Positions 10,660 to 43,905 of a DNA stretch of 64,000 bases are shown here, in pieces; the first letter of the stretch is position 1, and every line of letters begins with the position of its first letter. The stretch is from NCBI GenBank assembly GCA_049520815.1, contig JBEKPL010000002.1, forward strand, positions 14,654 to 78,653, in the 5' to 3' direction. The translations under genes were made by a program, and so were the position numbers. The notes beneath the pieces are model-generated. The model made no database searches. It was not told the origin of the DNA and worked only from the letters and a program-made list of their open reading frames with translations. This stretch comes from Candidatus Limnocylindrales bacterium. GTDB taxonomy: Bacteria > Chloroflexota > Limnocylindria > Limnocylindrales > CSP1-4.

Positions 10660-12809
<2,150 letters not shown>

Positions 12810-12824
12810 AAGGGATCCCAGCGC

Positions 12825-13841: not shown

Positions 13842-15785
13842 CTACTGCGTAGGCGCCGAGCAGACCTCGAAGGGCTGCGTTCCGACTTGGGCAAGCAGCG
13901 CCTGCCACCGATAGGGTTCCGGAAGGTTGGGCAGGATCATGGCCTGCCCGTTGGCCAGTGCATCGCCGGCACGTCCGTCCAGCAAAGCGGATGGCTGACC
14001 GGCGATTCCCACCAGCAGGACCATGCCGGGCGGTGGCGACTTCAGCCAGATGGCGCGCCGGTCGACGGGTACGGAGACCACTGTGCTGGGCCCTGAAGGA
14101 CGCACCACGCTGCAACTGGCTGAGGTGCCGGATTCGGCGGTGCCATCCTTGACGTCGAGCGGCGGCGCGGCTGCGTCTGAGGGTGGGGGCGGGACGAATC
14201 GGACGGCAGGGCCGAGGAGTCGCACGGCCGTCATGTTGACCGCCTGGCTATCGGCCGCGGACTCCCAGTCCCAGGCCAGCGCCGGCGCTCCAAAGCGCTG
14301 GATGACGGCCAGGTAGTCTCGGCCCGTGAGTTGCGGAATGTAGTCAGGATCGATCCCAATGTCCAAGTCGACGCCGGGGACCGATCTCACCGCCACGGCC
14401 AGGTCCAGTTCGGCCATTTCGGTCGCTCGAATGCCCTTCTCCCCCCGGGCGGCGCCGACGAACTGGCGCATGTTCCCGATCGACATGGGCACGATCAGGA
14501 GGAAGATGGCGGCCGGGACGAGTACCAACCTGCCTCGCCCGATCCATGTGCCACGGTCGAGACCGCGCCCAACGATGCCCGAGATGGTCAGCCACACGAA
14601 AAGCGCAGCCGGGTATAGGTAGCCGGAGCGGGCTGCGTGCTCGACACCGAAAGAGCCGCGGAAGAACGCCTGGAGGCCGTACTCGGCGACGAGCGCCGCA
14701 AAGGCTGCGGCCGCCAGCGGCGCCGGGCGAAGTCCACGGATCACTGCGACCGCTACGCAGGCGCCGGCCGCCGCGAGTATCAAGGTGCCGATCCAGGCGT
14801 AGTGGTCCGGCGGCAGTCCAACGACGCCGCACGTGGCTGCCCCCAGGCCGTACAGGAGCGACTCGGTGCCCCTGACCAGGGAGAAACCCGTCCCGGGCAG
14901 CGCCTGGAATTCGCCCGACCAGATGGCGTACCAGACGCCGTACAGAGCGATTGCAGGTACGGTCGCGAGGAGCGCGGCCCGGTCGCGATGGAGCACTGCC
15001 CACACCACGATGAGTCCAACGAAGATAGGACCGAGGCTCGACGAGGCGACGGCGAACACGAGGGCCAGGACCGCCACTGTGAGATCTCGCCGGCTGTGAG
15101 ATCCGGAGATCTCCCCCTCCGCCAGCAGCAGTCGGTCCAGTGCGAGCAGGCCGCCCGCGGCCGCCAGCAGGTACTGCATCTGGAAGGGCTGCAGCAGGTC
15201 CTCGAAGGCGCTGCCGAGCAGCAGAACAGATAGGCCCGCCATGAGCCCGAGCAACACTCCGGATCGTCGGGCGACGATGTGGTACAGGAGACCGACGCAG
15301 ACGAAGTCCGCCAGCCAGGTGACGAGCAGGTAGGGCAGGTACGTATGCAGCCCGAAGGCGGCGAGCAGTACCTCGTAGACGGCGACCAACGTAGCCAGGA
15401 GAGTGTCGACCTGGGGGGCGAAGAACGAGCGGACGCTGGGATCGGGTCGTTGAACGATGAAGTTCCACTCGTCCTGCCAGAACGTCACCCAGCGAGACAC
15501 GAAGAGCAGGAGCCCCAGCATCGCAATGCCGACCACAACGAGGATCGCGATCGCAAGACGGCGGTCCCAGAGGAGGTCGGGCGAGAGACGACGCTGCCAC
15601 CTCCCCGGGTCGTTCGCTCGCGCAGTCGACGCCGGTTGGGTCACGCTCTCATCCCTCCTCTGTCGTTCTTCGTCGCCAGGCTCCGCGATAGTAGCGCCCA
15701 GCCTCGCCGAGCGGGCAGCGGCACCGTGACCGGGGGCCCATCCGCTATCCTCTTCCCGCCGAAGAGACCCCGTGAGCCTGCTCAT
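13842..15785 (-). CDS. Polytopic membrane protein, GT-C-like (putative extracytoplasmic glycosyltransferase) with a ~200-aa non-membrane C-terminal domain
   Basis: Many hydrophobic helices. 'FWQDEWNF' follows the first TM segment (an acidic loop motif as in GT-C enzymes). The start is uncertain: the first ~60 aa are low-complexity and overlap a repeat element. Confidence 0.55.
   Translation of the reverse strand: MSRLTGSLRREEDSGWAPGHGAAARSARLGATIAEPGDEERQRRDESVTQPASTARANDPGRWQRRLSPDLLWDRRLAIAILVVVGIAMLGLLLFVSRWVTFWQDEWNFIVQRPDPSVRSFFAPQVDTLLATLVAVYEVLLAAFGLHTYLPYLLVTWLADFVCVGLLYHIVARRSGVLLGLMAGLSVLLLGSAFEDLLQPFQMQYLLAAAGGLLALDRLLLAEGEISGSHSRRDLTVAVLALVFAVASSSLGPIFVGLIVVWAVLHRDRAALLATVPAIALYGVWYAIWSGEFQALPGTGFSLVRGTESLLYGLGAATCGVVGLPPDHYAWIGTLILAAAGACVAVAVIRGLRPAPLAAAAFAALVAEYGLQAFFRGSFGVEHAARSGYLYPAALFVWLTISGIVGRGLDRGTWIGRGRLVLVPAAIFLLIVPMSIGNMRQFVGAARGEKGIRATEMAELDLAVAVRSVPGVDLDIGIDPDYIPQLTGRDYLAVIQRFGAPALAWDWESAADSQAVNMTAVRLLGPAVRFVPPPPSDAAAPPLDVKDGTAESGTSASCSVVRPSGPSTVVSVPVDRRAIWLKSPPPGMVLLVGIAGQPSALLDGRAGDALANGQAMILPNLPEPYRWQALLAQVGTQPFEVCSAPTQ
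15714..15769 (+). repeat. Copy A of a duplicated gene-end/spacer element
   Basis: GGCAGCGGCACCGTGACC-ggg-GGCCCATCCGCTATCCTCTTCCCGCCGAAGAGACC. It matches 17830-17896: 17/18 in block 1, and 2 mismatches plus 1 indel over the 35/36-nt block 2. Confidence 0.8.
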
Positions 15786-15859: not shown

Positions 15860-17845
15860 GTGACGAGCAGCGCCGTGGAGGTATCGCCCAGGCCAGCTGG
15901 AGGGTGGCACCGGCTGGAGAGCGGACTCGCCCACTTGGTTGCTCGTCCCCACTTCCTGGACGGGCTGGCAGCCGTCATCATCCTGGCCGGCGGGGTCCTT
16001 CGGTTCTTCCAATCGACGGCCCTCAGCTACTGGCTCGACGAAGGCTTCACGGTGATGTTCTCGCGTCAGTCGTGGGACCAGGTACTGGGCCTGAACGGTT
16101 CGTACGACACCCACCCGCCCCTGTACTACGCCGTCGTGAAGGCAGTCGCCCTGGTTCTTCCCGAGATTGACGCCGGCCGCTACTTGAGCGTCGTTGCCGG
16201 GACCGCAACGCTAGCCGTCTTCTACCTGCTCGCCATCCGACTCGTGAGCCGCCCTGCGGCGGTGATCGCCGTCCTGGCGGTTGCCCTCTCACCGCTCGCC
16301 GTCTGGTACTCGCAAGAGGCTCGCCAGTATGCCTTGGCCGGGCTTGCGGTCAGTCTGACCTACCTCGCGCTCGTGGCCTTCTACCAGGAGCCCCGGCGGC
16401 GCTGGGCGCTGCTCTACGGTCTGGCGCTGGCAGCGTCCATGTACCTCGACTACAGCGCTCTCTACCCTCTCGCCCCCCAGGTCTTCCTGCTGCCCATCGT
16501 CATCCGCCGACACCTGTGGCGCGCCGGGCCGCTCGTGATCGCTGGGATCGCGGCCGCCGTCGCATACCTGCCATGGGTTCCTCAGGTCCTCTCGACGGTA
16601 CAGACCCTGGGCAATGAGCGAGCATATTTCCTCGAAGCTAACCCGCCGGCCGTGAGGGACAGCCTCCTCTCGATCGTCGGGCTTGCGGGCCATACCATCT
16701 ACCACGCCGGCAGCAAGCCATCGGCATGGGATCGCTGGCCCGGCCTCGATCCCGTCATGGCCGGGCTCGCTGTGGTGATCATCTGCCTCGGCAGCCTCGC
16801 ACTTGTGCGACACCGGTTTGGCCTCGCGGTCGCGCTGGCCCTCTCGGTCGGCACAGTCGCGGCCGGGGCACTGTTCAGCCAGGTGAGCCCCGGATTCGCC
16901 CCTCGAACGGTGTCCTATGCGGTCCTTGGCTGGGCAATCCTGCTCGGAGCCGCGGCCGGCGCACGGGGTCTGTCGCTCCCCTTGCGGACTCTCGGCGTTG
17001 TGGCGGTCTGCGCAATGTTCGCGCTCTCGACCGTGTCGCTGTACGCCGTGTACCGCGGAGACAAGCAACACTGGCGGGACTGGGCGTCCGGCGTTGCCCA
17101 AGCGACTCGCCTGGGGTTCCCGGTCATCACGTTCCCGACGATCGCGCCCACGTTGATCGATGCCTACCAGCCCGGGGCTCTCGCGGGACCGCACCTTTCC
17201 CTGTACGACTCACCCGACCTCGCAGCGGTCGAGAGCTTCGCCAAGGGTCAGTCCGGCCTATGGATCGCCGCCTACAACATCGCTGGGAGCATCAGCATCG
17301 GCCAGAGGCTTACCGATCTCGGATTCGTGCACGTGACGAACGTGCGGTACTGGGATTTCCTTTCTTTGGATCTGTACTTGCGCCCGGGTGCCACGCCAGG
17401 GCGCCAGCTGGACGTGAATGGCGCGTTCTCGGGGTCCGGCAATGAGGCCACTGGCTGGGATCTGAGTCCCGGAGAAGCGACTCTGGCTCCCGGGCCGGAT
17501 GGCCGCGAGCTCACCCTGTCCAATCCCGGCGGCGCCGAGACGGCGGCGGTCTACGACCTGCCGGGCGGACCGTGGCGCCTCTACACACTGACGTTCGAGG
17601 CGGAGTCGCGCCTGACCGCCGGCGGGACGCGTGCCTTCCTCGAATGTGTCGGCGGCGGCAGCCTCGTCAGCGTCGCACCGGATGTGGCCGGACTACAGAT
17701 CGCAGCCGGCGGAGGCTGGCAGACGGTCACATTCAGCGCCCTCTGCCCTGACGGGACGGATGAGGTTCGGATCGACCTGCGTAACGCAGGCACAGGCGAC
17801 CTGGGCCTGCGCGGGGTCCGGCTGTTCGAGGCAGCGGCGCCGTGA
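15860..17845 (+). CDS. Glycosyltransferase family 39 / ArnT-PMT-like GT-C enzyme with C-terminal beta-sandwich (CBM-like) domain
   Basis: 'YWLDEGFTVMFS' and 'THPPLYY' in the first loop region, with more than 10 hydrophobic helices. The soluble C-terminal ~170 aa contains 'NGAFSGSGNEATGWDL..VRIDLRNAGTGDLGLRGVRLFE'. GTG start. Confidence 0.8.
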   Translation: MTSSAVEVSPRPAGGWHRLESGLAHLVARPHFLDGLAAVIILAGGVLRFFQSTALSYWLDEGFTVMFSRQSWDQVLGLNGSYDTHPPLYYAVVKAVALVLPEIDAGRYLSVVAGTATLAVFYLLAIRLVSRPAAVIAVLAVALSPLAVWYSQEARQYALAGLAVSLTYLALVAFYQEPRRRWALLYGLALAASMYLDYSALYPLAPQVFLLPIVIRRHLWRAGPLVIAGIAAAVAYLPWVPQVLSTVQTLGNERAYFLEANPPAVRDSLLSIVGLAGHTIYHAGSKPSAWDRWPGLDPVMAGLAVVIICLGSLALVRHRFGLAVALALSVGTVAAGALFSQVSPGFAPRTVSYAVLGWAILLGAAAGARGLSLPLRTLGVVAVCAMFALSTVSLYAVYRGDKQHWRDWASGVAQATRLGFPVITFPTIAPTLIDAYQPGALAGPHLSLYDSPDLAAVESFAKGQSGLWIAAYNIAGSISIGQRLTDLGFVHVTNVRYWDFLSLDLYLRPGATPGRQLDVNGAFSGSGNEATGWDLSPGEATLAPGPDGRELTLSNPGGAETAAVYDLPGGPWRLYTLTFEAESRLTAGGTRAFLECVGGGSLVSVAPDVAGLQIAAGGGWQTVTFSALCPDGTDEVRIDLRNAGTGDLGLRGVRLFEAAAP

Positions 17846-17951: not shown

Positions 17952-19511
17952 ATGATCGCCCGTGTGAACGTGAGCCTGCTCAGATCCTGGCGATCTCTCG
18001 CGCTTGTCGCCCTCGTTCTGGGGGGCATCGCGGGCGTGTGGCGGCTAAGCGATCGCACACCGACCAGCCTTGCTCTCGCCACCCTTGCCGTCGGCGGAGC
18101 GGGCCTGGTCGCGTTCTTGTCCACGCGGCGCCCGGTGGTCGCGTTCGGGGTCCTTTTCCTGCTCGCCTCGCTGTCCCGGTGGACGATCGACACGCAGCTG
18201 GGCAACATGCGGCTCGAGCAACCCGCGATCGCTGCCGGGCTTCTCGCGATGCTGTATGCGCGCCGGCTGCCCGATCTCGCGACATGGCGACGTCTCCTGC
18301 CGATGGCCGTCGCCTTCATGGTCTACCTGGGAGCGCTCACGGCCTCGTCGCTGCTGCACTCACCGGACCGGGTCGACAGCCTGCGCATGGTCTTCTGGAT
18401 CGGTCTCTCCATGGCCGGCGGACTGCTTGCCTTCCTGCTCTTGTTTGGAGGGGATCCAGAGGGCGGTCCTCACTGGCTGCGACTCGCGGCCGCACCACAG
18501 GCGGCGGCGGGGATTCTGATCGCGCTCCTCTTCTTCTGGCTAGGCCCTGTCATCCTCGCTGGCGGGCAGTATTTGCCCGGCATGGACAACAAGGTCTACG
18601 GCATGTCGTGGGAGGCGAACGTATATGCCAGCCTCCTCGGGGCTGTAGGTCTCTTCGCCATCGAAGAGTCCCGATCCAGGCCGCGGCTGAGGAGCGTGGC
18701 GCTAGTTGCGTTGCTCCTTCTGGGAATGGCGGTGGGCCTGACCCGCGGCGCATACCTTGGGTTGACCGCCGGCCTGATCGCCTACATCGGCGTCATCCTC
18801 TACCGGAGGCAGCGACCGCGCAGCCTGCTGCTCCCGGGCTCGGTCGCCGTCGGGGCGATTGTCGTCGGACTCCTGGTCGCGCCGGTGCTGCTGGACTACG
18901 CTCGCACCCCGACCCAGCCGATCGACCTGACCACGCCCGGCTGGGGCAGGGGGCTTGCGATCGGGCCGTATCTCCTGCCGGGCCTGCCCGGTCACCCCCC
19001 ATCCGGACTCCTGAGGATGGACATAGTCCCGCCCGCCCCGCCTGTCCCGCCGGGGGAACCGAAGCCGCCCCCTGTCGCGCCGCCGCCAACTACCGATACC
19101 ATCGCGTTCCGCCTGGACCGCATACCCATAGCCCTCGCGGACTGGCACGGCGACCCGGTTATCGGCCTAGGCGCTAACTCGTTCGGCCAGAGACACGTAG
19201 ATCTGACCCAGGGTCCAGCAGCTCCCGACCATCTTGCCATTCTCGCCGTTGCCGCCCTTTACGAATCGGGCGTGGTGGGCTCTGTGGGTCTGATTGTCGG
19301 CTTCGCGTTGATCCTGCTGGCACTCTGGCGCGCGTCACGACGGCCCACCACGGGGCCAATGGCCGCAGCGTACCTGGGCTCGCTGGTCTCTCTGCTCGTC
19401 GCCTATCAGGCCACCAACGCCCTAAACTTCTCCCTGATATGGCTCATAGCGGGCGCCGGCCTGGCGATGGTCTTCAGCAAGACGGCGGACAGAAGCAGCG
19501 CACCTGAGTGA
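17952..19511 (+). CDS. O-antigen ligase/polymerase family (Wzy_C-type) membrane protein
   Basis: Polytopic. Contains a 'LLLGMAVGLTRGAYLGLTAGLIAY' Wzy_C-like region and a Pro-rich insert 'PPAPPVPPGEPKPPPVAPPPTTD' in a large loop. GGAG precedes the ATG. Confidence 0.75.
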   Translation: MIARVNVSLLRSWRSLALVALVLGGIAGVWRLSDRTPTSLALATLAVGGAGLVAFLSTRRPVVAFGVLFLLASLSRWTIDTQLGNMRLEQPAIAAGLLAMLYARRLPDLATWRRLLPMAVAFMVYLGALTASSLLHSPDRVDSLRMVFWIGLSMAGGLLAFLLLFGGDPEGGPHWLRLAAAPQAAAGILIALLFFWLGPVILAGGQYLPGMDNKVYGMSWEANVYASLLGAVGLFAIEESRSRPRLRSVALVALLLLGMAVGLTRGAYLGLTAGLIAYIGVILYRRQRPRSLLLPGSVAVGAIVVGLLVAPVLLDYARTPTQPIDLTTPGWGRGLAIGPYLLPGLPGHPPSGLLRMDIVPPAPPVPPGEPKPPPVAPPPTTDTIAFRLDRIPIALADWHGDPVIGLGANSFGQRHVDLTQGPAAPDHLAILAVAALYESGVVGSVGLIVGFALILLALWRASRRPTTGPMAAAYLGSLVSLLVAYQATNALNFSLIWLIAGAGLAMVFSKTADRSSAPE

Positions 19512-21107: not shown

Positions 21108-22448
21108 GTGACTGACGACGATCTTCAACCGGCAGGCCGGCAAATGAACCCAACTGGCCGTGACTCGGTCCGCGGGTCCACGTCGACAGCAGGGTCGATA
21201 TGGAGTGGTCGCGCGGCTGCGACGCTCGGGTCCGTGGCCACTGGCCTGGCGTACCAACCAGTCTTGATAGTTAGCGGCATCGCCGTGGCACGGCTCCTCG
21301 GCGTCGAGAACCGAGGCGAACTTGCGCTCCTATCGCTGGTGCCCATAGTCCTGTCACAGCTTGGCGGCTTGGGGCTTCCTCTCGCGCTCACGTACTACGT
21401 CGCAGCACGCCCGGAATCGGCGCGCCAGCTGCTCACATGTCTGCGGCCCGTCGTGGTCTGCCAGGTCGCGAGCCTATTGGCGCTGCACGCTTGTCTCATC
21501 TGGGCTCTGTTCTTGGGCTCTTCCTCGGTTGAGGTTCCGTATGCGGCGGCTGTGACCCTGCTCGTCGTTCCTGGGGTCCTGGCTCAGCAATACGGCTTCG
21601 CCATGCTACAGGGCCTCCAGCTGTATCGGGCGTTCAACATCCTGCGCCTTACCCCGGCCGTGCTGTATGCGCTTGGAGCAGCCGTTGCGTACGTCGCAGG
21701 GTGGCGTGATCTGCTCATCGTCACGGTGATCTGGGTGCTAGCGAGCGTCGGGGCGGGCGTCTTGACCATTGTCGTGGCAGCAGCCCGCGCCCGTGAGCGC
21801 AGGCGCGATTCTGAAGTTGATCGGCGGAAGTTGCTTGGGTTTGGCCTCAGGGGGCTGCTCGGCTATGTTTCGCCGGTCGAGACCTTCCGACTCGACCAAG
21901 CGGTTGCGGGCTTCCTGTTGTCGCCGCAAGCGCTCGGGCTCTATGTCGTCGGCGCGGCATTCACGAACCTTCCTCGTTTCGTGGCTCAGAGTGTCGGTAT
22001 GGTCGCGTATCCGGCCGTCGCGAGCCAGCCGACTCGGCGGCTGGCTCGCAGGGAGATGCTGCGGTTCTTCGTCGTTGGTTCGCTCATGGCAACGGGACTA
22101 GTGGCTATCCTGGCAGGGCTCGCGCCGTGGATGGTGCCGTTCTTCTACGGTCAGGAGTTCGAGCCGGCTGTGAGGATCACCCAGATCCTTCTACTTGGCG
22201 CCCTGTTCTTGAGCCTTCGTCGTCTGCTAGCTGACGGACTCGGAGGGATGGGCCTGCCAGGCATCAACAGTGTCGCGGAACTCGTCGGCTGGGTCGCGTT
22301 GGCGCCGTGTTTCCTCATTCTGGTCCCTCGCTACGGACTCGACGGCATCGCATGGTCTGTCGTGATCTCATGGGGCGTGAGTCTTATCGCAGTCGCGATT
22401 CCTGCCATCGCCATCAGTCGCGTGAAGGAACAGGCCGATGGCGCATAG
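21108..22448 (+). CDS. wzx: Oligosaccharide/polysaccharide flippase (Wzx, MOP superfamily)
   Basis: About 12 hydrophobic helices. The 'GIAVARLLGVENRGELALL' N-terminal region is typical of the Polysacc_synt family. Start is GTG 21108 or ATG 21144. Confidence 0.75.
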   Translation: MTDDDLQPAGRQMNPTGRDSVRGSTSTAGSIWSGRAAATLGSVATGLAYQPVLIVSGIAVARLLGVENRGELALLSLVPIVLSQLGGLGLPLALTYYVAARPESARQLLTCLRPVVVCQVASLLALHACLIWALFLGSSSVEVPYAAAVTLLVVPGVLAQQYGFAMLQGLQLYRAFNILRLTPAVLYALGAAVAYVAGWRDLLIVTVIWVLASVGAGVLTIVVAAARARERRRDSEVDRRKLLGFGLRGLLGYVSPVETFRLDQAVAGFLLSPQALGLYVVGAAFTNLPRFVAQSVGMVAYPAVASQPTRRLARREMLRFFVVGSLMATGLVAILAGLAPWMVPFFYGQEFEPAVRITQILLLGALFLSLRRLLADGLGGMGLPGINSVAELVGWVALAPCFLILVPRYGLDGIAWSVVISWGVSLIAVAIPAIAISRVKEQADGA

Positions 22449-22756: not shown

Positions 22757-23212
22757 ATGTCCACAGCCGCTGACCGGGCCGCAGGAACCTGCATTCTGAG
22801 GCTCCATGTCGGACGTCATTCATCGGTTGCGTGCCGTCACTACTTGGATTGTTCGGGAGGGATCAGCATCGGAGAGTTCACGACAGTCGAAGGCGTCCGA
22901 GCGACCATCTTGAGTCACTCACTTGACGTCGAAACCAGCGTCCAAATCAATAGACCAGTGAGGATTGGGGAGATGTGCTTCGTCAGCTCTAATGTGTGCG
23001 CAGTGCCCGGCGGCACCATTCCCGAAGGCTGCGCGATTGCGATGGGTGCCGTGGTTGTCGGAGAACTGCCCACCGGCAAGGCTATGCACGCTGGCGTCCC
23101 GGCCAAACCGGTCAAGATGAGAATCGAGGACGGTGCCTGTTTCCGCCGAAGACGGGGCGTCGTTGGACTCGACGAACCGGACGGGCTTGCGAACCCCGGG
23201 TCACGGCCATGA
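22757..23212 (+). CDS. Left-handed beta-helix (hexapeptide repeat) O-acetyltransferase, WcaF/Mac-like, possibly truncated
   Basis: Motif 'GGISIGEFTTVEGVRATILSHSLD..VRIGEMCFVSSNVCAVPGGTIPEGCAIAMGAVVVGE'. The stop overlaps the next start (ATGA). Confidence 0.7.
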   Translation: MSTAADRAAGTCILRLHVGRHSSVACRHYLDCSGGISIGEFTTVEGVRATILSHSLDVETSVQINRPVRIGEMCFVSSNVCAVPGGTIPEGCAIAMGAVVVGELPTGKAMHAGVPAKPVKMRIEDGACFRRRRGVVGLDEPDGLANPGSRP

Positions 23213-25122
23213 ACCTGCTGCGAGGGAGTGTCCCCACGTTCAAGCCGACACTGGAGTCAGCGGGAAGGTTGGCCGCAGCCGCGGCAGTTGTGACGGTTTC
23301 GTGGAATGCCGTCCGTCTCAGCTCCAGCGTCACGTTGTCGGACGCCTTCCTGCTGGTCGCCGCAGCGGTTCTCGTTTCGGCCGGCGTGACCGGTCGGCTC
23401 ACTTCGCTCGGCCTGACCGGGCGGCTCAGCGTCAGTTCGGTTCCCATGTGGCTGCCGATCTCGGGAGCTCTCCTGCTCGTCGCTGGCGTTCTGTCGGCAC
23501 TCAGCTCAGCCGACGTCAAAGGCAACCTAGCCCCCGCGGTCGCTTTCGTGATAGCACTCACGTTCGTTCCGCTGATAGTCGGCCTCGCGACTGGAACGAG
23601 CCGCTTGATCAGAACCTTTGCCTTGCTTCTCCTCGTGTCATCTGCGATCAGCGGCGGAGAGGCCGTAGCCGACTTGGTCAGCGGAGCTGGCATATCTACT
23701 GCGATCAGCGGCGCTGCGTTCTTGGGCCGCTCGGCAGGCCTGTCGGTTCATCCCAACCATATGGCTCTCGCGGCAGCCATGGGGCTCCCACTCGCGTATG
23801 GGCTGCTCGTCACGAGTAGACGACGCGCGGAGCAGACTTTCGTCTACCTGCTCCTCCTGCCGGTCACTGGCGGCATATTCGCATCGGGATCGAGGGCGGG
23901 GCTGGTCTGCGCTGTCGGGGGAGTTGCGACGGCTTGGTTCCTCTCGCGCGGGGAATACAAGCGGTGGCGCGTGGCTGTTGTTATGTTCGCGATCGGTCTC
24001 TTGGTGCTGATCGTATCGTCTGCCATGGGGTGGCACCAGCTGACGGTCGCAACCGATCGACTCGTTGGCCTTCAGCCGACCACAGAGAGCAACAGCATAC
24101 GCGTGGCGGATTACACGCAAGCGGTGGCTTCGATCTCCTCGAACCCCCTCGTGGGAACGGGGTTCTCGTCTGTTCGCATCGCGCACAACATCTACCTGCA
24201 AGTGCTCGAGGCCGGCGGCGTCCTCGGCATAACGGCCTTTGCCATCTTTGGAATCGGTTTCCTTTACTTGGGCCTTCGGCTCTGTCGGGATATGAGGCTG
24301 CCGGCGGAAATGGAAGCGTTCGCGGCTGCCGCTACAGCCTCCATGCTGACGTGGTTTGCGGGTGGGCTCGTCGGCAACCAGATCTACGATCGCTACCTGT
24401 ATGTGCCCTGCGGTCTCCTTGTTGGAATAGCCCTCATGGCTCGGAGTAGCTCAGCTAGCCGGATTGGCGCAGTCATAGGGAAAGAATGGATGAGAGATCC
24501 GCGCATCGAAGAGCATCTAGTCGGAGGCGCGCTTGCCGTTGACCTTGGGTGCGGAGGCGGCGAGTGGGCGGATGCCGCAATGGGCCGGTACGACCGGGTT
24601 GTGGGAATTGACGTAAGCCTCGACCGTCTCGAACGCAGAACGCACCCCAAAGGGGGCTGGGAGTTCGTTCAGGCAGATCTGAACAACGGCATCCCACTGC
24701 CGGACGCGTGCGCCGACGGCGTCCATGCGGACCAGGTGATCGAGTACGTGGCAAACCCACTGCAGTTCGTCCTCGAGGCCTACCGCGTGCTGCGCCCAGG
24801 GGGAGTTCTTGTGCTGGCGACGCCAAACGTGCGGGACATGCGCCACGTCATCCGGCTCGTTGCGGGAGGCCACGGGTCGATCACTTCTGGAGAGGTCCCT
24901 CGCACGCCAGAGGCATGGGACGAAGGCCGCGTTCACTTCCTGTCCTCGCGCGACCTCGAGCGGCTCGCTCGCACGGCAGGCTTCTCAAGCATTCAAACGG
25001 AGGCCCTCATCGACACATCGGGCTCGATGAGGCCCCTGCGGCGCCTCCTCAACAGTGCGAGAAGACGCGGCCTGGTCAAGGGGCTACTCTGTGGCAAATT
25101 GATGCTTGCGGCTACCAAGTGA
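23209..25122 (+). CDS. Fusion protein: Wzy_C/O-antigen-ligase-type polytopic membrane domain plus C-terminal class I SAM-dependent methyltransferase
   Basis: Membrane part: 'GSRAGLVCAVGG..GTGFSSVRIAHNIYLQVLEAGGVLGITAF'. C-terminal part: 'AVDLGCGGGEW..VVGIDVS..LRPGGVLVLATPN' (SAM motifs I and post-I). Start placed at ATG 23209 (ATGA overlap). The ORF extension back to 22996 is rejected. Confidence 0.75.
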   Translation: MNLLRGSVPTFKPTLESAGRLAAAAAVVTVSWNAVRLSSSVTLSDAFLLVAAAVLVSAGVTGRLTSLGLTGRLSVSSVPMWLPISGALLLVAGVLSALSSADVKGNLAPAVAFVIALTFVPLIVGLATGTSRLIRTFALLLLVSSAISGGEAVADLVSGAGISTAISGAAFLGRSAGLSVHPNHMALAAAMGLPLAYGLLVTSRRRAEQTFVYLLLLPVTGGIFASGSRAGLVCAVGGVATAWFLSRGEYKRWRVAVVMFAIGLLVLIVSSAMGWHQLTVATDRLVGLQPTTESNSIRVADYTQAVASISSNPLVGTGFSSVRIAHNIYLQVLEAGGVLGITAFAIFGIGFLYLGLRLCRDMRLPAEMEAFAAAATASMLTWFAGGLVGNQIYDRYLYVPCGLLVGIALMARSSSASRIGAVIGKEWMRDPRIEEHLVGGALAVDLGCGGGEWADAAMGRYDRVVGIDVSLDRLERRTHPKGGWEFVQADLNNGIPLPDACADGVHADQVIEYVANPLQFVLEAYRVLRPGGVLVLATPNVRDMRHVIRLVAGGHGSITSGEVPRTPEAWDEGRVHFLSSRDLERLARTAGFSSIQTEALIDTSGSMRPLRRLLNSARRRGLVKGLLCGKLMLAATK

Positions 25123-25196: not shown

Positions 25197-26189
25197 TTGA
25201 CTCAGCTTGACAACCGACCTCGCCGGATACTCGTCACGGGAGGCTCCGGTTTCATCGGGACCAACGCGATCGAGGCGTTGCGGCGTCATGGCCACACGGT
25301 CATCAACATCGATGTCGCGCCCCCCAAGGACCCAACACATGCGAGTTGCTGGCGCCAGGTGGACATCCTGGACCTGCCTGCGCTGCGTCAGGAGCTCCTT
25401 TCCTTCCAGCCGGAGATCGTGCTCCATCTTGCCGCCCGCGCAAGCCTCGACGGGAGGGGCGGCCTAGCTGCTTTCGCTGCGAACATCGATGGCGTCGCCA
25501 ACATGATCCAGGCGATCATCGCGGTGGGCTCTGTCGAACACAGCTTCTTCACGTCCACCCGCCTGGTCAACGACCTTGGCTACGCGCCCAAGCACGATCG
25601 GGACTACCAGGCGTCAACGATGTACGGGCTCAGCAAGGCGCGCGGCGAAGAGTTGGTCCGGGATGCCAGCCATGCGCTAGGCACGTGGACGATCCTGCGG
25701 CCCACAGGGATTTGGGGCCCATGGTTCGGCGTCCCATACCGGGACTTCTTCAAGACCATTGAGCGTGGTCTGTATCTTCACCCCGGGCGGCGCACCGTTC
25801 GGAAGGCATATGGATACGTTGAGAACACCGTCTATGAAATCGAGACGCTCATGGCACAACCAGCCGCCGATGTACACGGGCAAACGTACCTGCTCACGGA
25901 CTACCCAGCCGTCTCCGTTCGAGAATGGGCGGAACTGATCCGCGAGAAGCTCGGAGCGAGGCGGATCAGGAGCGTCCCAATCCCAGCGCTACGTGCCGCG
26001 GGCGCTATCGGCGATGTTGTGGAGCGAATTGGGGGCCACGCGCTGTTGACGAGCTTCCGTGTGAACAACATGGCGACTGACATGGTCTACGACACGTCGC
26101 CGCTCGAAGCGATGGTCGGTCGACTCCCCTTCAGCCTGGAGGAGGGCGTGGACCGGACCATCGCGTGGCTCAAAGCTGGAGCTGGATGA
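25197..26189 (+). CDS. NAD-dependent epimerase/dehydratase family protein (extended SDR)
   Basis: Motifs 'ILVTGGSGFIGTNAIEAL' and 'YGLSKARGE' (YxxxK). TTG start. Confidence 0.8.
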   Translation: MTQLDNRPRRILVTGGSGFIGTNAIEALRRHGHTVINIDVAPPKDPTHASCWRQVDILDLPALRQELLSFQPEIVLHLAARASLDGRGGLAAFAANIDGVANMIQAIIAVGSVEHSFFTSTRLVNDLGYAPKHDRDYQASTMYGLSKARGEELVRDASHALGTWTILRPTGIWGPWFGVPYRDFFKTIERGLYLHPGRRTVRKAYGYVENTVYEIETLMAQPAADVHGQTYLLTDYPAVSVREWAELIREKLGARRIRSVPIPALRAAGAIGDVVERIGGHALLTSFRVNNMATDMVYDTSPLEAMVGRLPFSLEEGVDRTIAWLKAGAG

Positions 26190-28402
26190 GAATCCTTCAC
26201 GTCACGGCGTGGCTAGCCCCCAGGTACGGCGGCCCCGCCGCCTTTCTCCCGAAAGCTTGCGCAGCGGTCTGTGCGCTCGGCCACGATGTTGAGATCGTGG
26301 CCACCGACGCCGATGGACCAGGCGTCGTCGACGCGCCCACGGGCCGTAGGGTGGACTGGGCGGGCGCGGCTGTGACATTCCATCCGCGGTCGTGGCCGCG
26401 GCGCTTCCTCGTGTCTTGGCCGCTACTGCGCGACCTCTGGCAACGGTCATCGCGGTTCGACGTTGTACACATTCACTACCTTTACCGCTTCCACACTATC
26501 GCCGCGGTTCTTGCCGCCCGACATGCCGGCGTTCCATACGTCATCCAAGCTCATGGCAGCCTCGATCCGTGGCACCGACGGCGACGACGGCGCACGAAGA
26601 GCCTTTACCACGCCCTCATCGAGGACTCGCATCTTCGCGGGGCAGCTGCGATCATCTGCACCACGGATCAGGAAGCGAGGGCAATCCGCGGTCTCGGCTA
26701 CGCGGGATCCACGTGGGTAATACCGATCGGGATCGACGCCGAGGATCTTCGGCGCCCGGCGTCGGCAGATGCCTTCCTGGCGCACGCCGGCGTGGAACCG
26801 AGAACGCGCGTCGTGACATTCCTGGGTCGGATCTCCGAGAAGAAGGGGCTGCCATTGCTCGTGGAGGCATTCCGCGACACTGCATCGCAGTTTCCATCCG
26901 CTCGATTGCTCGTGGCCGGCCCGGACGACGAAAGCATCGGGCGAAGGCTTGGTGGGCGCATCGAGGAGCTGGGCCTCAGCGGTCGCGTCTCGTTCCTCGG
27001 ATCGGTCGAGGGCGACGAGAAGCGGGCACTTCTCCAGCGCTCCGATGTCTTCGTTCTGCCGTCAGCCGACGAGAGCTTTGGGATTGCCGTTGCCGAGGCG
27101 ATGGCGGTCGGCTGCCCGGTGGTAGTGAGCCCCTACGTTGCGCTTCAGGATGTAGTGGCATCCACGGGAGCCGGCATCGTCGCAGAACGCACCAGTGCAA
27201 GCATCGCCACGGCCGTGAACGCGATCCTTCAGGATCGCCCGAAGGCGGACGGCATGGCGGCCGCAGGCAAGCGAGTTGTTGGCGACAAATACTCCTGGCC
27301 TCGAGTTGCGGCCGAGTTGGAACGCATGTATGCGAGCGTCCGGGCGACATCGGCTCGGCGAACTGGTCGAGCCGTCAACTCGGCCCCAGCTGCGGACTGG
27401 ACCCCCCGGGAGCCGCCCATTGTATGTCCGAAATGCCGTGGTCCGCTGCGACTTGAACCCGGCGAGTATGAATGCGTTGGGTGTCGCCAGTCGTTCTCCA
27501 TCATCGATGGGATCCCGGTTCTTGTGAGCGACCTCGGAGTGACTGTGCATGACGAGATAGACCACGTCCACGTGCAGGGCGAAGGTGCTCGGGATGCTGC
27601 AGCCCGCAAGGCGGCGCAGGCGCGGCACTTTGACCGCGATGTCACTGAGCAGTTCGAGATCGAGCGGCCCCACGGAACGCCGCGACTCTACCGTTTCTTC
27701 CTTGGGGAGAAGTTCCGTCGTGCAACTGAGCCCTTGGGGTGCCATCTGTATGGAGCAACTGCCCTGACCGTCTGCGGCGGGTCGGGCATGGATGCCGAGT
27801 ACCTGTCTCGTGCGGGCGCCACGGTCGTCAGTTCGGACCTGTCGCTGGGTGCCGCTACGCGAGCAAAGACCCGCTCTGAGCGCCATGGCCTGGAACTCGG
27901 ATCGATCGTGGCGGACTTGGAACGCCTTCCGTATGCCGACCATTCGGTGGATCTCGTGGCCGTTCATGACGGGCTGCACCACCTGGACGACCCATACGCC
28001 GGCGTGTCTGAGATGGCGCGCGTCGCTCGGCGCTGGGTCGTCATCACTGAACCAGCTCGGGCGTCGGTGACGAGGTTGGCGATCCGCCTGGGACTGGCTC
28101 TGGAGCGAGAAGATGCCGGCAATCGCGTCATTCGCCTTGAGCCGTCCGAGGTGGCCGCATACCTGGAAGCACGTGGGTTCGTGGTGCTACGGGCCGAACG
28201 CTACGCCATGTACTACTCACATCGTCCAGGGACGATCTTCCGGCTCCTGAGCCGGCCGGTCGTCTTCATGGTCGTGCGAGCCGGTTGGCGGGCGGCCAAC
28301 GCTCTGTTGGGCCGATTCGGCAACAAGATGGTTGTCGTCGCGGAGCGCACCCAGCGAGGCGAGGTCGATTCCAAGGCTCCCATGCCATGTCAGGCCTGGT
28401 GA
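26186..28402 (+). CDS. Tri-domain fusion: GT4 glycosyltransferase, Trm112-like Zn-ribbon and SAM-dependent methyltransferase
   Basis: GT4 part: 'MRILHVTAWLAPRYGGPA..LPSADESFGIAVAEAMAVGCP'. Zn-ribbon: 'CPKCRGPL..CVGCRQSFSIIDGIPVL'. Methyltransferase: 'LTVCGGSGMDAEYL..VAVHDGLHHLDDP'. ATGA overlap with the upstream gene. Confidence 0.8.
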   Translation: MRILHVTAWLAPRYGGPAAFLPKACAAVCALGHDVEIVATDADGPGVVDAPTGRRVDWAGAAVTFHPRSWPRRFLVSWPLLRDLWQRSSRFDVVHIHYLYRFHTIAAVLAARHAGVPYVIQAHGSLDPWHRRRRRRTKSLYHALIEDSHLRGAAAIICTTDQEARAIRGLGYAGSTWVIPIGIDAEDLRRPASADAFLAHAGVEPRTRVVTFLGRISEKKGLPLLVEAFRDTASQFPSARLLVAGPDDESIGRRLGGRIEELGLSGRVSFLGSVEGDEKRALLQRSDVFVLPSADESFGIAVAEAMAVGCPVVVSPYVALQDVVASTGAGIVAERTSASIATAVNAILQDRPKADGMAAAGKRVVGDKYSWPRVAAELERMYASVRATSARRTGRAVNSAPAADWTPREPPIVCPKCRGPLRLEPGEYECVGCRQSFSIIDGIPVLVSDLGVTVHDEIDHVHVQGEGARDAAARKAAQARHFDRDVTEQFEIERPHGTPRLYRFFLGEKFRRATEPLGCHLYGATALTVCGGSGMDAEYLSRAGATVVSSDLSLGAATRAKTRSERHGLELGSIVADLERLPYADHSVDLVAVHDGLHHLDDPYAGVSEMARVARRWVVITEPARASVTRLAIRLGLALEREDAGNRVIRLEPSEVAAYLEARGFVVLRAERYAMYYSHRPGTIFRLLSRPVVFMVVRAGWRAANALLGRFGNKMVVVAERTQRGEVDSKAPMPCQAW

Positions 28403-30647: not shown

Positions 30648-31439
30648 TCACGGTGTCCCGCCATTGAAGACGCACCACCCCGAGTCTCCAGCCACCGTGC
30701 ATGCAAATCCGAGACTCTCCATGAGGAGAACCACATCTTCTGACGTCGTGCCAAGGGCTCGGAGTTGTCTAGGATGCAGTTCGAGCGCAACTTGTCTGAC
30801 CGCGCCACGCCGGAATACCTCGCGAGCACCATCAATGACGTGAGATTCGTACCCTTCGACGTCTATCTTCATGAGGTCCACCGTTTCGACGCCCAAAGAC
30901 GGCAAGAGGTCGTCGAGCTTGACCTGCGTGACATGCTCACGCCTAGTCGGATAACGGACGGGAGGAGTCGCCGACGATGCACCGGTGTTCACGGAAGGCA
31001 TGATGTGGAGAACAAGGACTCCGGCAACATCACCCACCGCCGCCCGCACGACATTCACGTTGGAGCAGCTATTCAGCCCGAGGTTGGCAGCTAGTACATC
31101 CGCCACCCTTTCTTGTGGCTCAACTGCCACAACACGCCCGCTGGCGCCGACGAGCGCTGAAGCCATGACCGTGAAGTATCCCTCGTTTGCGCCCACGTCG
31201 ACGAAGGTCATCCCGGCGCTGAGGTTGTCGGCTAGGCGTCGCGTCATCGACGGTTCGTACGCGCCAGTGCGAATAAGTTCTGCTCCGAAGTATGAGACTG
31301 GATCTACGAGAAACCTCCCAGCGGGGACGTGGACCTCGCGGCGCCGAACCCGCAGTAGCACCTTCACGACCGACAAAGCTGCAGCTGGCCTCATACGGAA
31401 GAGGCTGCGCTCCAATCGCGAGAGACTCTCCGGTGCCAC
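30648..31439 (-). CDS. FkbM-family SAM-dependent methyltransferase
   Basis: Motif 'FVDVGANEGYFTVMASALVGASGRVVAVEPQERVADVLAANL..NVNVVRAAVGD'. Confidence 0.8.
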   Translation of the reverse strand: MAPESLSRLERSLFRMRPAAALSVVKVLLRVRRREVHVPAGRFLVDPVSYFGAELIRTGAYEPSMTRRLADNLSAGMTFVDVGANEGYFTVMASALVGASGRVVAVEPQERVADVLAANLGLNSCSNVNVVRAAVGDVAGVLVLHIMPSVNTGASSATPPVRYPTRREHVTQVKLDDLLPSLGVETVDLMKIDVEGYESHVIDGAREVFRRGAVRQVALELHPRQLRALGTTSEDVVLLMESLGFACTVAGDSGWCVFNGGTP

Positions 31440-31915: not shown

Positions 31916-32950
31916 ATGCTCCCATGGCGAAAGCGAAGCATGAGGGTCGCGGTCATCGGCTGCGGTCTGATCGGCACGCGCCGAGCGAAAGTCGCAGTCG
32001 ACTCGGGTGACGAGGTCGTCGTTGTTGCCGACATCTCCGCAGACCGCGCCCAAGCTGTAGCCGAGGCAACACGGTCAAAATGGACCGTGTCCTGGCCGGA
32101 GATCGTTTCTCGCGACGACATTGACGTCGTGGTCGTGTCCACATCCAACGATCTTCTCGCTGAAGCCTCGATCGCGGCACTGGAGTCGGGCAAGCACGTC
32201 TTGTGCGAGAAACCATTGGGCCGCAACGCCGCAGAAGCCACCGCGATCGTCGCAGCGGCCCAGGCGGCGGGGCGGCTACTCAAGGTCGGGTTCAACCACC
32301 GCCATCACCCGGCAATCGCCGCTGCGCGCGAGCTGGTGGGCGAAGGCGCAATTGGTGATGTTTTCGCGATCCGGGCGCTGTACGGGCACGGTGGCCGGGC
32401 GGGGTACGAGCGAGAATGGCGAGCGAACCCGGCTCGTTCGGGGGGTGGCGAGCTCCTGGACCAGGGCGTCCATATCGTGGATCTGGCGCGCTGGTTCATC
32501 GGGGAGATAGCTCAGGCCCAGGGCTACGTCGGAACATATCACTGGCCGATCCAACCGGTCGAGGACAACGCGTTCGCGCTCCTGCGCGCTAGCAGTGGTG
32601 GCATCGTGTCGTTCCACACGAGTTGGACTCAATGGAAGAACGCCTTCCGTTTCGAGGTACTCGGAACCGGCGGCTATCTTCGAATCGACGGACTTGGCGG
32701 CTCTTACGGTACCGAGCGCTTGACCCTCGCGAAGCGGAACGAGGACTCCTCGCCGCCCGTGGAGGAAACAACTTCATTCGAGGGCCCAGACCAGTCATGG
32801 CGCAGCGAGTGGCAGGAGTTCTCGACGGCGATCGGGCAGAACAGGCAACCCCTCGGCAACGGCGACGACGGTCTTGCGGCTGCGCGCATTCTCGACGCGA
32901 TCTACGAATCCGCCGCGTCGGGAAATGCCGTCGAGGTGGCTCACGCATGA
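31916..32950 (+). CDS. Gfo/Idh/MocA-family NAD(P)-dependent oxidoreductase
   Basis: 'MRVAVIGCGLIGTRRAKV' Rossmann N-terminus and 'GKHVLCEKPL'. Start is ATG 31916 or 31940. Confidence 0.85.
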   Translation: MLPWRKRSMRVAVIGCGLIGTRRAKVAVDSGDEVVVVADISADRAQAVAEATRSKWTVSWPEIVSRDDIDVVVVSTSNDLLAEASIAALESGKHVLCEKPLGRNAAEATAIVAAAQAAGRLLKVGFNHRHHPAIAAARELVGEGAIGDVFAIRALYGHGGRAGYEREWRANPARSGGGELLDQGVHIVDLARWFIGEIAQAQGYVGTYHWPIQPVEDNAFALLRASSGGIVSFHTSWTQWKNAFRFEVLGTGGYLRIDGLGGSYGTERLTLAKRNEDSSPPVEETTSFEGPDQSWRSEWQEFSTAIGQNRQPLGNGDDGLAAARILDAIYESAASGNAVEVAHA

Positions 32951-35800: not shown

Positions 35801-35807
35801 GGACGGA

Positions 35808-42393: not shown

Positions 42394-43905
42394 TCACGCC
42401 TGGCAGGCCGCCGGCACGACCCCCGGGAGCCCGTAGTAGCTGCTCTCCGAGCCGAACAACGCCACCGACAGGTTGGCGACCAGCGCCATGTCCAGCCGGC
42501 TGGTCCACGTCCCGCCCGTGGTGGACGTGTCCGGATGGTAGCTGTAGGGCGGACCAAGCACGCAGTTGGATATCGAGGTCACGTGCTGGGCGGCCGACAC
42601 GTAGTCGCGGGCGGTCGCGAGCGGAAAGTCCGTGGCGACGACCTTGCCGGCCAGCGAGATAAGGTTGCCCACATTCGGCAGGATGGACGGACTCGCCACC
42701 TTCCGCTCCAGAGCCACGAGCAGGGCCTGCTGGCGAGCTGCTCGCTGGTAATCACTGCCGCCCGCTCCTTCACGAGAGCGGACGTACAGCATGGCCAAAG
42801 AGCCGTTGAGGTGGACGCGGCCGACGCCCATCTCTATTCCGGTCGACGGGTCGTCGATCGCCCGCTCGTTGTAGATGTCCACGCCCCCGATCGCGTTGAT
42901 CATGCTGGCGAGGCCTCCCAGGTCGAGTGCGGCGTAGTAGTCGATGGGCAGGCCGACCAGGAAACTGACCTCCTTCTTCAGGGTGATCATCGGCGGATCC
43001 GGAGACTTGTAGTAGCCGTTGATCAGCTTGTTGACCAGCTCATTGAGCTTCAACCCGGACTCGGCCCAGCCGCCGTAGTACAGGTCGAAGGCGGAGGTGT
43101 CGCGGGGCACGCTGATCATGGTCACCTTGCCCGTCCCGGTGTCCATGCTCACAACCATCATGGTATCCGTGATGGCGTTTTGGAAGGCTCGGCCGGGCAT
43201 GTTGTCCAGGCCCACGACCAGGAAGGTGATCCGATTGGGATTCTTCGTTCGAGCGGGCGTAGGGTCGGCGCTCCGCTCGACGGTGGCTGCGGGATGGAAC
43301 GCCGACAGGTCGAGCGGCGTGGGAATCGGGGTGGCGGTGGGGCTGGGGCTGGGGGAGGACGAGGTGCCCGCAGCGAAGATGTTGTTGTTGGCCGCGATGT
43401 CGAGATCCGCCTGATGTACGAGCCATGCGTCGGCGGCCACGTAGGTGTGCATCCCGACGATGGCCACGAGGAGGGCGGCAACGACACCCGCCTCCAGGGG
43501 GCGGAAGCGGAAGCGCCGGGCCCGCGGCGCGGAGAGGAAGGCGTGGGCGGTCGACGCGACGCGCAAGGCCCCGGCCAGGACGACGAGAACGGCCACGGTC
43601 AGGGCATAGCTCTCGTCGAGCATGCTCGCGCCAACCCACCACAGCCCGTGGGTGAGCTGGACCACGACCCACACCGTCAGAACCAGGGCTGGCAGAGCGA
43701 AGATGGCGGCCCAGGCCCGGCGACCCAGGAACAGCTGGCCCAGGCCCGGCCAGAGGAAGGACAGAGCGGCCGCGATCAGGGGCGAGCGACGACGTACCGC
43801 CGGCTCAGCGGTGGAGTCGGGCTCGTGGGCGGAGCCGGGCTCGCCGGCCACCGGCTCAGCGCCGAAGCCGGCCTCCTCTGCGGTGTCTCGAGTCTCGTTC
43901 CCCAT
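42394..43905 (-). CDS. LCP (LytR-CpsA-Psr) family glycopolymer-to-peptidoglycan ligase
   Basis: N-terminal TM helices followed by 'RITFLVVGLDNMPGR..TDTMMVVSMDTGTGKVTMISVPRDT'. Confidence 0.85.
   Translation of the reverse strand: MGNETRDTAEEAGFGAEPVAGEPGSAHEPDSTAEPAVRRRSPLIAAALSFLWPGLGQLFLGRRAWAAIFALPALVLTVWVVVQLTHGLWWVGASMLDESYALTVAVLVVLAGALRVASTAHAFLSAPRARRFRFRPLEAGVVAALLVAIVGMHTYVAADAWLVHQADLDIAANNNIFAAGTSSSPSPSPTATPIPTPLDLSAFHPAATVERSADPTPARTKNPNRITFLVVGLDNMPGRAFQNAITDTMMVVSMDTGTGKVTMISVPRDTSAFDLYYGGWAESGLKLNELVNKLINGYYKSPDPPMITLKKEVSFLVGLPIDYYAALDLGGLASMINAIGGVDIYNERAIDDPSTGIEMGVGRVHLNGSLAMLYVRSREGAGGSDYQRAARQQALLVALERKVASPSILPNVGNLISLAGKVVATDFPLATARDYVSAAQHVTSISNCVLGPPYSYHPDTSTTGGTWTSRLDMALVANLSVALFGSESSYYGLPGVVPAACQA

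Follow-up and report, generated by a model that had tools for sequence, protein, structure and literature searches.

In a 64,000-nucleotide stretch of DNA from Candidatus Limnocylindrales bacterium (hereafter the window, meaning this whole stretch), one gene joins a Wzy_C/WaaL-fold membrane domain to a class I S-adenosylmethionine (SAM)-dependent methyltransferase. The fusion is real, and both of its domains are under purifying selection. We think it probable that it is a genuine and recent fusion of an outer-face Wzy_C domain with a membrane-tethered sugar O-methyltransferase that would act on the lipid-linked repeat unit of a Wzx/Wzy-type locus.

The fused gene and its domains

The gene and its parts are as follows, with the basis of each assignment in brackets; AF2 stands for AlphaFold2 and TM for transmembrane.

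23209..25122 (+): fused gene, 637 amino acids (aa) plus stop, with a Wzy_C/WaaL-fold membrane domain, a linker and a class I SAM methyltransferase (open reading frame (ORF), Pfam, AlphaFold model, independent contigs)
23209..24459 (+): membrane domain, residues 1-417, 12 TM helices, predicted N-in/C-in (AF2 helices, positive-inside count, Foldseek)
23854..24240 (+): Pfam Wzy_C match, residues 216-344, which holds SGSRAG (R229) and the outer loop with R284, R298, GTGF and AHNIYLQ (H326) (Pfam)
24025..24189 (+): large extracytoplasmic loop between TM9 and TM10, residues 273-327, presumed catalytic (AF2 secondary structure, low content of lysine plus arginine (K+R), conserved Arg/His)
24460..24489 (+): linker, residues 418-427, SASRIGAVIGKEW region, poorly conserved, where stop and start overlapped in the ancestor (junction alignment with contigs L001, L005 and L004)
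24490..25119 (+): methyltransferase domain, residues 428-637, opening at a Met aligned with the start codon of the free-standing L005 ortholog (Pfam; alignment A2)

The reading frame runs through 637 codons without an internal stop (23209-25122, +). Its start codon (ATG, 23209) shares bases with the stop of the ORF before it (22757-23212), and the same start is found in the orthologs P0002 and P0003. A longer version of the ORF starts with GTG at 22996, and in the record P0001 (617 aa) the gene caller placed the start 20 codons later. The G+C content of the region is about 62-63%, that of the window 62-72%.

Both halves were recognized by Pfam. Wzy_C (PF04932) matched residues 216-344 with 38.1 bits (cutoff 31.7, E 1.6e-9), and Methyltransf_11 matched residues 444-536 with 65.9 bits (threshold 21.2, E 5e-18); the further class I methyltransferase models Methyltransf_23, _25, _31 and _12 also scored above threshold. 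The SAM-binding motifs VDLGCGGG, GIDVS and LRPGGVLVLATPN are intact in the fused protein. A preliminary description of this DNA had proposed a single 637-aa ORF with a Wzy_C membrane domain and a C-terminal class I SAM methyltransferase; the uninterrupted translation and the two Pfam matches bear this out, and all peptide strings quoted there were found in the translation. NCBIfam gave no family-level name for either domain: the membrane domain reached 32.6 bits with TIGR03097 (PEP_O_lig_1, exosortase-associated O-glycosylation ligase; cutoff 188.1), and the methyltransferase domain 50.9 bits with NF045667 (DVU_1556 family methyltransferase; cutoff 155).

Integrity of the junction and selection on both domains

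The interval 24,400-24,500, singled out in the preliminary description for a missed stop or frameshift, was checked on assembled contigs and proved continuous in these. The Logan contig X1, from an independent peat-metagenome run, spans 23209-24843 with 1 mismatch and 0 gaps, and the soil-metagenome contig X4, which spans 23473-25122, has 223 mismatches and again 0 gaps. A JGI/ENA record on a 110-kb contig gives the identical 637-aa product (P0166); an exact look-up of the product on contigs returned no match, although this identical entry exists in the protein collection. Besides, the ortholog P0002 (84% identity), also of 637 aa, shares the fused frame on six contigs (ENA, JGI, Logan) with a largely syntenic locus. 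The runs bearing these sequences are metagenomes of peat and soil.

An assembly or sequencing artefact, i.e., a missed stop or frameshift between two genes, would be easy to conceive given that the ancestral state was two genes with a 4-bp overlap (see below), from which a single-base error would yield such a fusion. However, the separate contig of an independent run passes over the junction without a gap, the 84%-identical ortholog has the same fused frame on six contigs from three sources, and the junction differs from the unfused form by about 26 extra bases and several substitutions, not by one base. With independent contigs and a diverged ortholog in the same frame, an artefact was rejected as extremely improbable.

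Comparison of the window with L001 (Nei-Gojobori method) gave a synonymous divergence (dS) of about 0.2 and a ratio of nonsynonymous to synonymous rates (omega) of 0.51 for the membrane domain and 0.23 for the methyltransferase. Judging by these two values, selection has maintained both domains since the lineages of the window and P0002 parted. The stretch around the linker (residues 416-432, 17 residues) showed 47% identity between the window and L001 and an omega of about 1.6. The 210 methyltransferase codons hold 0 stops and 0 indels in both fused lineages.

Origin of the fusion

The unfused arrangement is preserved on contig L005. There, the membrane protein P0004 is 60% identical to the membrane part of the window protein, and the methyltransferase is a separate 210-aa gene, 74% identical to the C-terminal domain of the window protein, that starts 4 bp before the wzy stop (ATGA overlap). 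At the junction, the window reads TGG-ATG-AGA and L005 reads AAA-TGA / ATG-AGC, and the window carries about 26 more bases than L005 in the tail after TM12. From this alignment, Met428 (ATG at 24490) corresponds to the former start codon. The ancestor had a wzy gene and a methyltransferase gene of about 210 aa overlapping by ATGA, and small indels before the overlap brought them into one frame. The fusion arose after the split from the L005 lineage and before that between the window and P0002; it is evolutionarily young and narrow, being seen in two close lineages only. No methyltransferase gene was found downstream of P0003 (73% identical) or of P0005 (55% identical). The 217-aa gene downstream in L006 was considered as a candidate and rejected, as it is not a methyltransferase.

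The retention of ATG 24490 raises the question of whether the methyltransferase is mainly made separately from this internal start, in which case the two activities would not be physically coupled. Met428 falls exactly on the position where the free-standing gene of L005 starts, and a purine-rich GGGAAAGAA stretch lies 5-13 nt upstream of the ATG. In the sister lineage P0002, however, AAG replaces the ancestral start ATG and the domain remains conserved all the same, so that the methyltransferase can hardly be made alone in that lineage; and since no stop lies between the domains, the full-length protein must also be made. Mainly separate synthesis is therefore quite unlikely in our view.

Structure and membrane topology

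The AF2 model of the full protein, built from a 54-sequence alignment, reached a mean predicted local distance difference test score (pLDDT) of 87.3 and a predicted template modelling score (pTM) of 0.77, and the membrane domain alone reached 89.8 and 0.90, respectively. The modelled TM helices cover residues 12-28, 43-65, 81-98, 103-127, 131-158, 182-202, 206-226, 229-245, 250-272, 328-359, 366-385 and 395-416. The loop 273-327 holds three short helices and is followed by three more TM helices. The TM12 helix continues to about residue 427 and the Rossmann-type domain begins at about 431, with pLDDT below 50 at residues 425-428.

Topology was deduced from the AF2 helices and the positive-inside rule. 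With the large loop set outside, the predicted inner loops carry 15 K+R in 84 residues, including RRR 204-206 and RGEYKRWR 247-254, vs 8 in 131 residues on the outer loops. The best structural match of the membrane domain in Foldseek was the O-antigen ligase WaaL (7TPG_B, E 9e-7, TM-score 0.57/0.59), followed by the SEDS polymerases FtsW and RodA. Because three helices follow the outer loop, with the positive-inside bias and the WaaL match, the C-terminus and the methyltransferase are predicted to be cytoplasmic, where SAM is. Proteins of the WaaL type likewise have their C-terminal end inside the cell. The preliminary description had wanted this location confirmed, and the modelled helices and charge count support it; it had also seen a topological oddity in the fusion, which disappears, as the 12 TM helices, the K+R bias and the WaaL match put the C-terminus inside, and a cytoplasmic appendage on an outward-facing enzyme is normal.

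Among 47 members of the Wzy_C subfamily, R174, R229, R284, R298, G316, G318 and G337 are invariant and H326 nearly so; all are present in the window protein, in predicted outer loops. By analogy with WaaL, these residues would be expected to bind the pyrophosphate of a lipid-linked donor. The C-terminal domain consists of alternating beta/alpha elements in the AF2 model, and Foldseek matched it to class I methyltransferases at E ~1e-7, including the sugar O-methyltransferases RebM and AtmM. Its best sequence match in the Protein Data Bank (PDB) was the D-glucose O-methyltransferase AtmM (6uv6, E 8.5e-6).

Rarity of the fusion and recurrence of the gene pair

Searched against 1.84 billion cluster representatives with phmmer, the full protein gave 13,478 matches. 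Among the best 150 of these, only the window's own cluster joins both domains; the methyltransferase-type matches are all 150-272 aa long, and the other Wzy-type matches all come without a methyltransferase. The combination is thus rare, in line with the preliminary description. Since only the top 150 matches were listed, there may be remote Wzy_C-methyltransferase fusions that arose independently and resemble both halves only weakly. No description of a Wzy_C domain combined with a methyltransferase came up in literature searches.

A scan of genome contigs based on the methyltransferase alignment retrieved 53 loci (L007-L059) from many phyla, including Gamma- and Zetaproteobacteria, Acidimicrobiia, Nitrospirota, Planctomycetota and archaea, and the gene was fused in none of them (0/53). 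The closest were from Chloroflexia (42-56% identity). The pattern on which the scan relied, WDxGH[LVI]H[YF][FL]T, does not fit the window (WDEGRVHFLS there); the genome of the window was therefore not retrieved, and column conservation in L007-L059 is biased by ascertainment. Scanning metagenome contigs with the full protein, with patterns from window-specific peptides, returned two remote methyltransferase loci only (26% identity), which did not help to date the fusion.

In several of the 53 loci, the gene directly upstream of the methyltransferase is of the Wzy type. A Pfam-supported Wzy_C gene occupies this position in L028 (Desulforudis), L033 (Pirellulales) and L056 (Deltaproteobacteria). 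Upstream of the methyltransferase, a partial ORF matching the Wzy subfamily profile is found in L034 and a near-threshold O-ag_pol_Wzy gene in L041; an unannotated protein with 8-10 TM helices lies directly upstream in L010, L012, L013 and L015. In L009 (3602-5983, a Chloroflexia metagenome-assembled genome (MAG)), a 793-codon stop-to-stop frame upstream of a free-standing methyltransferase showed a weak Wzy_C match together with DUF2304 and a family 2 glycosyltransferase (GT2); it may contain several genes in one frame, or another multi-domain protein.

Long Wzy_C relatives were also inspected. None of P0029, P0052, P0058, P0087, P0135, P0141 and P0151 carries a methyltransferase; their extensions are Wzx, P-loop or unassigned. 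P0058 and P0141 are fused to Wzx flippase domains, P0135 has the reverse order (Wzx-Wzy_C and Wzy_C-Wzx both occur), and P0029 is fused to a CbiA/ParA-type P-loop domain. The Wzy_C subfamily seems prone to fusing with pathway partners.

The glycan locus

The fused gene lies in a glycan locus of about 40 kb in the window, with several GT4 and GT2 glycosyltransferases and a UDP-glucose dehydrogenase gene. Its other main features are listed here.

11799-13772: GDP-mannose 4,6-dehydratase (Gmd) and a GDP-fucose-synthase-like reductase
13842-15785 (-): 647-aa membrane protein without Pfam match, divergent from the PMT_2-type gene
15860-17845 (+): PMT_2-type GT-C glycosyltransferase, 661 aa
17952..19511 (+): second, divergent Wzy_C-like polytopic membrane protein, 519 aa (hhalign; orthologs with PF04932)
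21108..22448 (+): Wzx-type flippase (Polysacc_synt_3), upstream of the fused gene (Pfam)
22757..23212 (+): small ORF with weak likeness to hexapeptide-repeat acyltransferases, its stop overlapping the ATG of the fused gene (Hexapep_2 only at E 0.06)
26165..28402 (+): GT4 glycosyltransferase with a Cys-rich CxxC...CxxC segment and Methyltransf_11, 745 aa, two genes downstream of the fused gene (Pfam)
30648-31439 (-): FkbM methyltransferase
31916-36401 (+): GFO/IDH/MocA oxidoreductase, nucleotidyl transferase, GHMP kinase, epimerase/dehydratase and SIS-domain protein
39865-41046 (-): another Methyltransf_11 protein
42394..43905 (-): LytR-CpsA-Psr (LCP) family protein, candidate for attaching the finished glycan to the cell wall (Pfam LytR_cpsA_psr, E 2e-30)

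A second Wzy_C-type gene at 17952-19511 had been noted in the preliminary description. This is confirmed in part: its 519-aa product has no Pfam match of its own, even at E 0.1, and the family relation is supported by hhalign against the Wzy_C-subfamily profile (probability 89%, E 2.5e-6), with SGSRAG-like and GxGxxxF...H motifs in register, and by its orthologs, most of which carry precomputed PF04932 matches. Three orthologs of 42-54% identity are Ca. Limnocylindrales/Chloroflexota MAG records (NCBI), two of the three, one in a Ca. Limnocylindrales and one in a Chloroflexota MAG, being named 'O-antigen ligase family protein'. The 519-aa protein has a proline-rich outer loop of about 100 residues.

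In L006 and L005, the gene immediately preceding the Wzy_C ortholog is wzx. No ABC transporter (Wzm/Wzt) was found among the scanned ORFs, which make up part of those in the window; the Wzx flippase is there instead. The pair 13842-15785 and 15860-17845 suggests an additional extracytoplasmic glycosylation step using a polyprenyl-phosphate sugar. The run at 31916-36401 resembles a nucleotide-activated heptose or modified-sugar pathway, the heptose-suggestive genes being at 32623-36401. The true starts of the ORFs 32623-33678 and 34067-35800 are probably further downstream, because the listed ORFs overlap their neighbours.

The GT4-methyltransferase fusion has a 735-aa ortholog in L001-L003 (14341-16548 in L001). 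Altogether, the locus contains two different methyltransferase fusions, the FkbM protein and another Methyltransf_11 protein. Paralogs with DUF3048 occur at both ends of the locus (2501-3697, + and 41182-42381, +) and also in L001 (1539-2762). As to the host, the housekeeping protein AccC (49114-50478), which is the biotin carboxylase subunit of acetyl-CoA carboxylase, shares 88-90% identity with proteins from MAGs of Ca. Limnocylindrales, an order of Chloroflexota.

Proposed function

The locus most likely makes a polysaccharide that is methylated and linked to the wall of a bacterium of the monoderm type, and not a lipopolysaccharide O-antigen. Its assembly would most likely proceed as follows. 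At the inner face of the membrane, glycosyltransferases would assemble the repeat unit on a polyprenyl carrier, and the methyltransferase, held about 10 residues from the cytoplasmic membrane surface, would methylate a sugar of this lipid-linked unit. Wzx would then flip the methylated unit, the membrane domain of the same polypeptide would polymerise or transfer it outside, and the LCP enzyme would attach the polymer to the wall. The C-terminal domain is most likely a sugar O-methyltransferase, and the membrane domain, which belongs to the Wzy_C family of undecaprenyl-pyrophosphate (Und-PP)-glycan transferases, most likely a repeat-unit polymerase. The polymerase role is favoured because relatives adjoin Wzx flippases or are fused to them.

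The preliminary description had proposed that the fusion couples a modification or capping step to polymerisation. This was not supported for capping: polymerisation is extracellular, in a place without SAM, which makes capping after polymerisation unlikely, and the fusion is a recent merge of translationally coupled neighbours rather than an ancient designed coupling. A speculative variant, to which we give very little credence, is that the tethered methyltransferase acts as a control element by blocking the acceptor hydroxyl of the non-reducing sugar on some units, the ratio of methylated to unmethylated units setting chain number and length. If this were true, methylated units would serve only as the distal first unit, and a Wzz-independent mechanism of chain-length control would reside inside a Wzy-type polymerase.

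Several observations weigh against the proposed function. Neither an initiating phosphoglycosyl transferase nor a Wzz-type polysaccharide co-polymerase (Wzz/PCP) was found among the scanned window ORFs, and the likeness of the C-terminal domain to characterized sugar O-methyltransferases is weak (E ~1e-5 to 1e-6). The 519-aa Wzy_C-like protein could be the polymerase instead. The best structural match, WaaL, is a ligase. Besides, the membrane domain contains HNIYLQVLEAGGVLG (residues 326-340), i.e., the motif H[NSQ]x9Gxx[GTY], a WaaL signature; this motif is probably shared by many Wzy_C proteins, so it does not discriminate.

The methyltransferase domain itself raises a further difficulty. 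By full-length similarity it falls with a subfamily, hereafter WDxGHxH, defined from alignment A2, with the signature residues H513, P557, H574, H576 and T579. The free-standing relatives in A2 (210-236 aa) are 36-74% identical over the full length of the window domain, which matched the subfamily profile along its full length with 308 bits. The window protein departs from it by H513Y, P557S, H574R and T579S, at sites conserved in at least 95% of 59 family members, the conservation of H574 and T579 being free of ascertainment bias only in the 11 A2 sequences; P0002 and L005 retain the consensus at all four sites. In a relative-rate test with L005 as outgroup, the methyltransferase domain of the window had 14 unique substitutions vs 4 in P0002 (p ~0.02), and the membrane domain showed no asymmetry (19 vs 20). 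These differences suggest that the methyltransferase in the window genome may be relaxing or impaired, or changing specificity.

They lend some weight to the view that the fusion arose by accident and is tolerated, with no functional coupling of its halves, and that, in the window lineage, the methyltransferase is decaying into an inert cytoplasmic tail. The restriction of the fusion to two close lineages would fit, as would the changes at the four near-invariant sites, one of which is a His in the WDxGHxH signature, and the excess of substitutions confined to this domain. The closest unfused relative, P0003, is without any methyltransferase, and the window and L001 differ in the genes around the fusion: in the window an epimerase separates the fused gene from the GT4-methyltransferase gene, in L001 a GT2 does. 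On the other side, an omega of 0.23, below that of the membrane domain, 210 codons without stop or indel in either lineage and intact SAM-binding motifs VDLGCGGG, GIDVS and LRPGGVLVLATPN argue against decay, and the order of a methyltransferase after wzy recurs across phyla. We consider decay unlikely, though less so than separate synthesis from the internal ATG.

The most serious competitor of the polymerase assignment is that the membrane domain is a WaaL/PglL-type ligase, or an O-oligosaccharyltransferase, passing the finished glycan to a lipid or a protein (e.g., an S-layer protein), with the 519-aa protein as the polymerase and the methyltransferase still cytoplasmic. The best structural match and the ligase motif named above agree with it, as do the presence of two Wzy_C-like genes in the locus and the fact that the best membrane-domain match in NCBIfam, TIGR03097, is a putative O-glycosylation ligase model. 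However, the TIGR03097 score is far below its cutoff (32.6 vs 188), and the relatives of the subfamily adjoin or fuse with Wzx, as is typical of wzx-wzy pairs. Attachment to the wall would already be provided for by the window's LCP enzyme. Chloroflexota are not known to make a lipid A-core, which would be the acceptor of a WaaL-type reaction. A ligase is thus a possible but tentative assignment, and a repeat-unit polymerase coupled to a cytoplasmic sugar O-methyltransferase is preferred.

Significance

Both halves of the protein come from large families that are biochemically almost unstudied, and the fusion provides a natural "Rosetta stone" for them. It indicates that the methyltransferase subfamily, present in Chloroflexota, Proteobacteria, Planctomycetota, Nitrospirota and archaea, works at the membrane with Wzy-type enzymes, and that its likely substrates are lipid-linked repeat units. 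A construct in a single polypeptide would be handy for studying cytoplasmic tailoring beside the flippase/polymerase machinery. Limnocylindria are abundant in soil and freshwater and have no cultured model for the envelope, and the window offers a first look at a locus for a methylated cell-wall glycan in this lineage. No rule is overturned: the protein has a conventional topology, and its fusion is young and of narrow distribution.

Comparison with known systems

The window protein resembles WaaL (PDB 7TPG; CAZy GT121) in its Wzy_C family membership, its 12 TM helices, its large outer loop with Arg/His residues and its presumed lipid-pyrophosphate-linked donor. It differs by its low identity to WaaL (16%) and its added C-terminal methyltransferase. 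Its partners are Wzx and LCP, not core-oligosaccharide genes, and no lipid A-core acceptor is expected in its Chloroflexota host.

We know of no characterized Wzy with an appended methyltransferase, the searches returned none, and in this respect the window protein, whose polymerase activity is proposed from context, differs from the Wzy polymerases. By analogy, it would otherwise be like those with a Wzy_C domain (BP-Pol families, PMC10920833): polytopic, encoded beside wzx in a repeat-unit locus and acting at the outer face.

Another parallel is WadA of Brucella/Mesorhizobium, a bimodular O-antigen ligase (GT121 + GT25) that forms a clade over five genera (PMC10920833). In both cases, a WaaL-fold module is joined to a globular partner whose cytoplasmic reaction comes earlier in the assembly of the same glycan. 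In WadA, however, the partner is a glycosyltransferase, not a methyltransferase, and the window fusion is seen in two close lineages only. This precedent implies that such couplings exist and mark joint action.

In WsaE (Geobacillus S-layer glycan) and WbdD (Escherichia coli O8/O9a), a methyltransferase is fused to glycosyltransferase/kinase modules and methylates the lipid-linked glycan in the cytoplasm (PMC2943079). The window protein shares with them the fusion of a SAM methyltransferase to a glycan-assembly module, the neighbouring GT4 plus methyltransferase protein (26165-28402) being closer to this type. However, WsaE and WbdD belong to ABC-transporter pathways in which methylation caps the non-reducing end and ends the chain, whereas the window locus is of the Wzx/Wzy type. 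Because Wzx/Wzy polymerisation is extracytoplasmic, capping of the WbdD/WsaE type cannot follow polymerisation here.

The nearest relatives of the C-terminal domain are the free-standing methyltransferases of its own subfamily (e.g., the L005 gene, P0033 and P0047; WDxGHxH[YF][FL]T), which share 36-74% identity with it and are often encoded directly after a Wzy-type gene; they differ in being separate soluble proteins. What is new in the window is a rare and young join of two known families; each family, the conventional topology and the fusion of a WaaL module to another enzyme are known.

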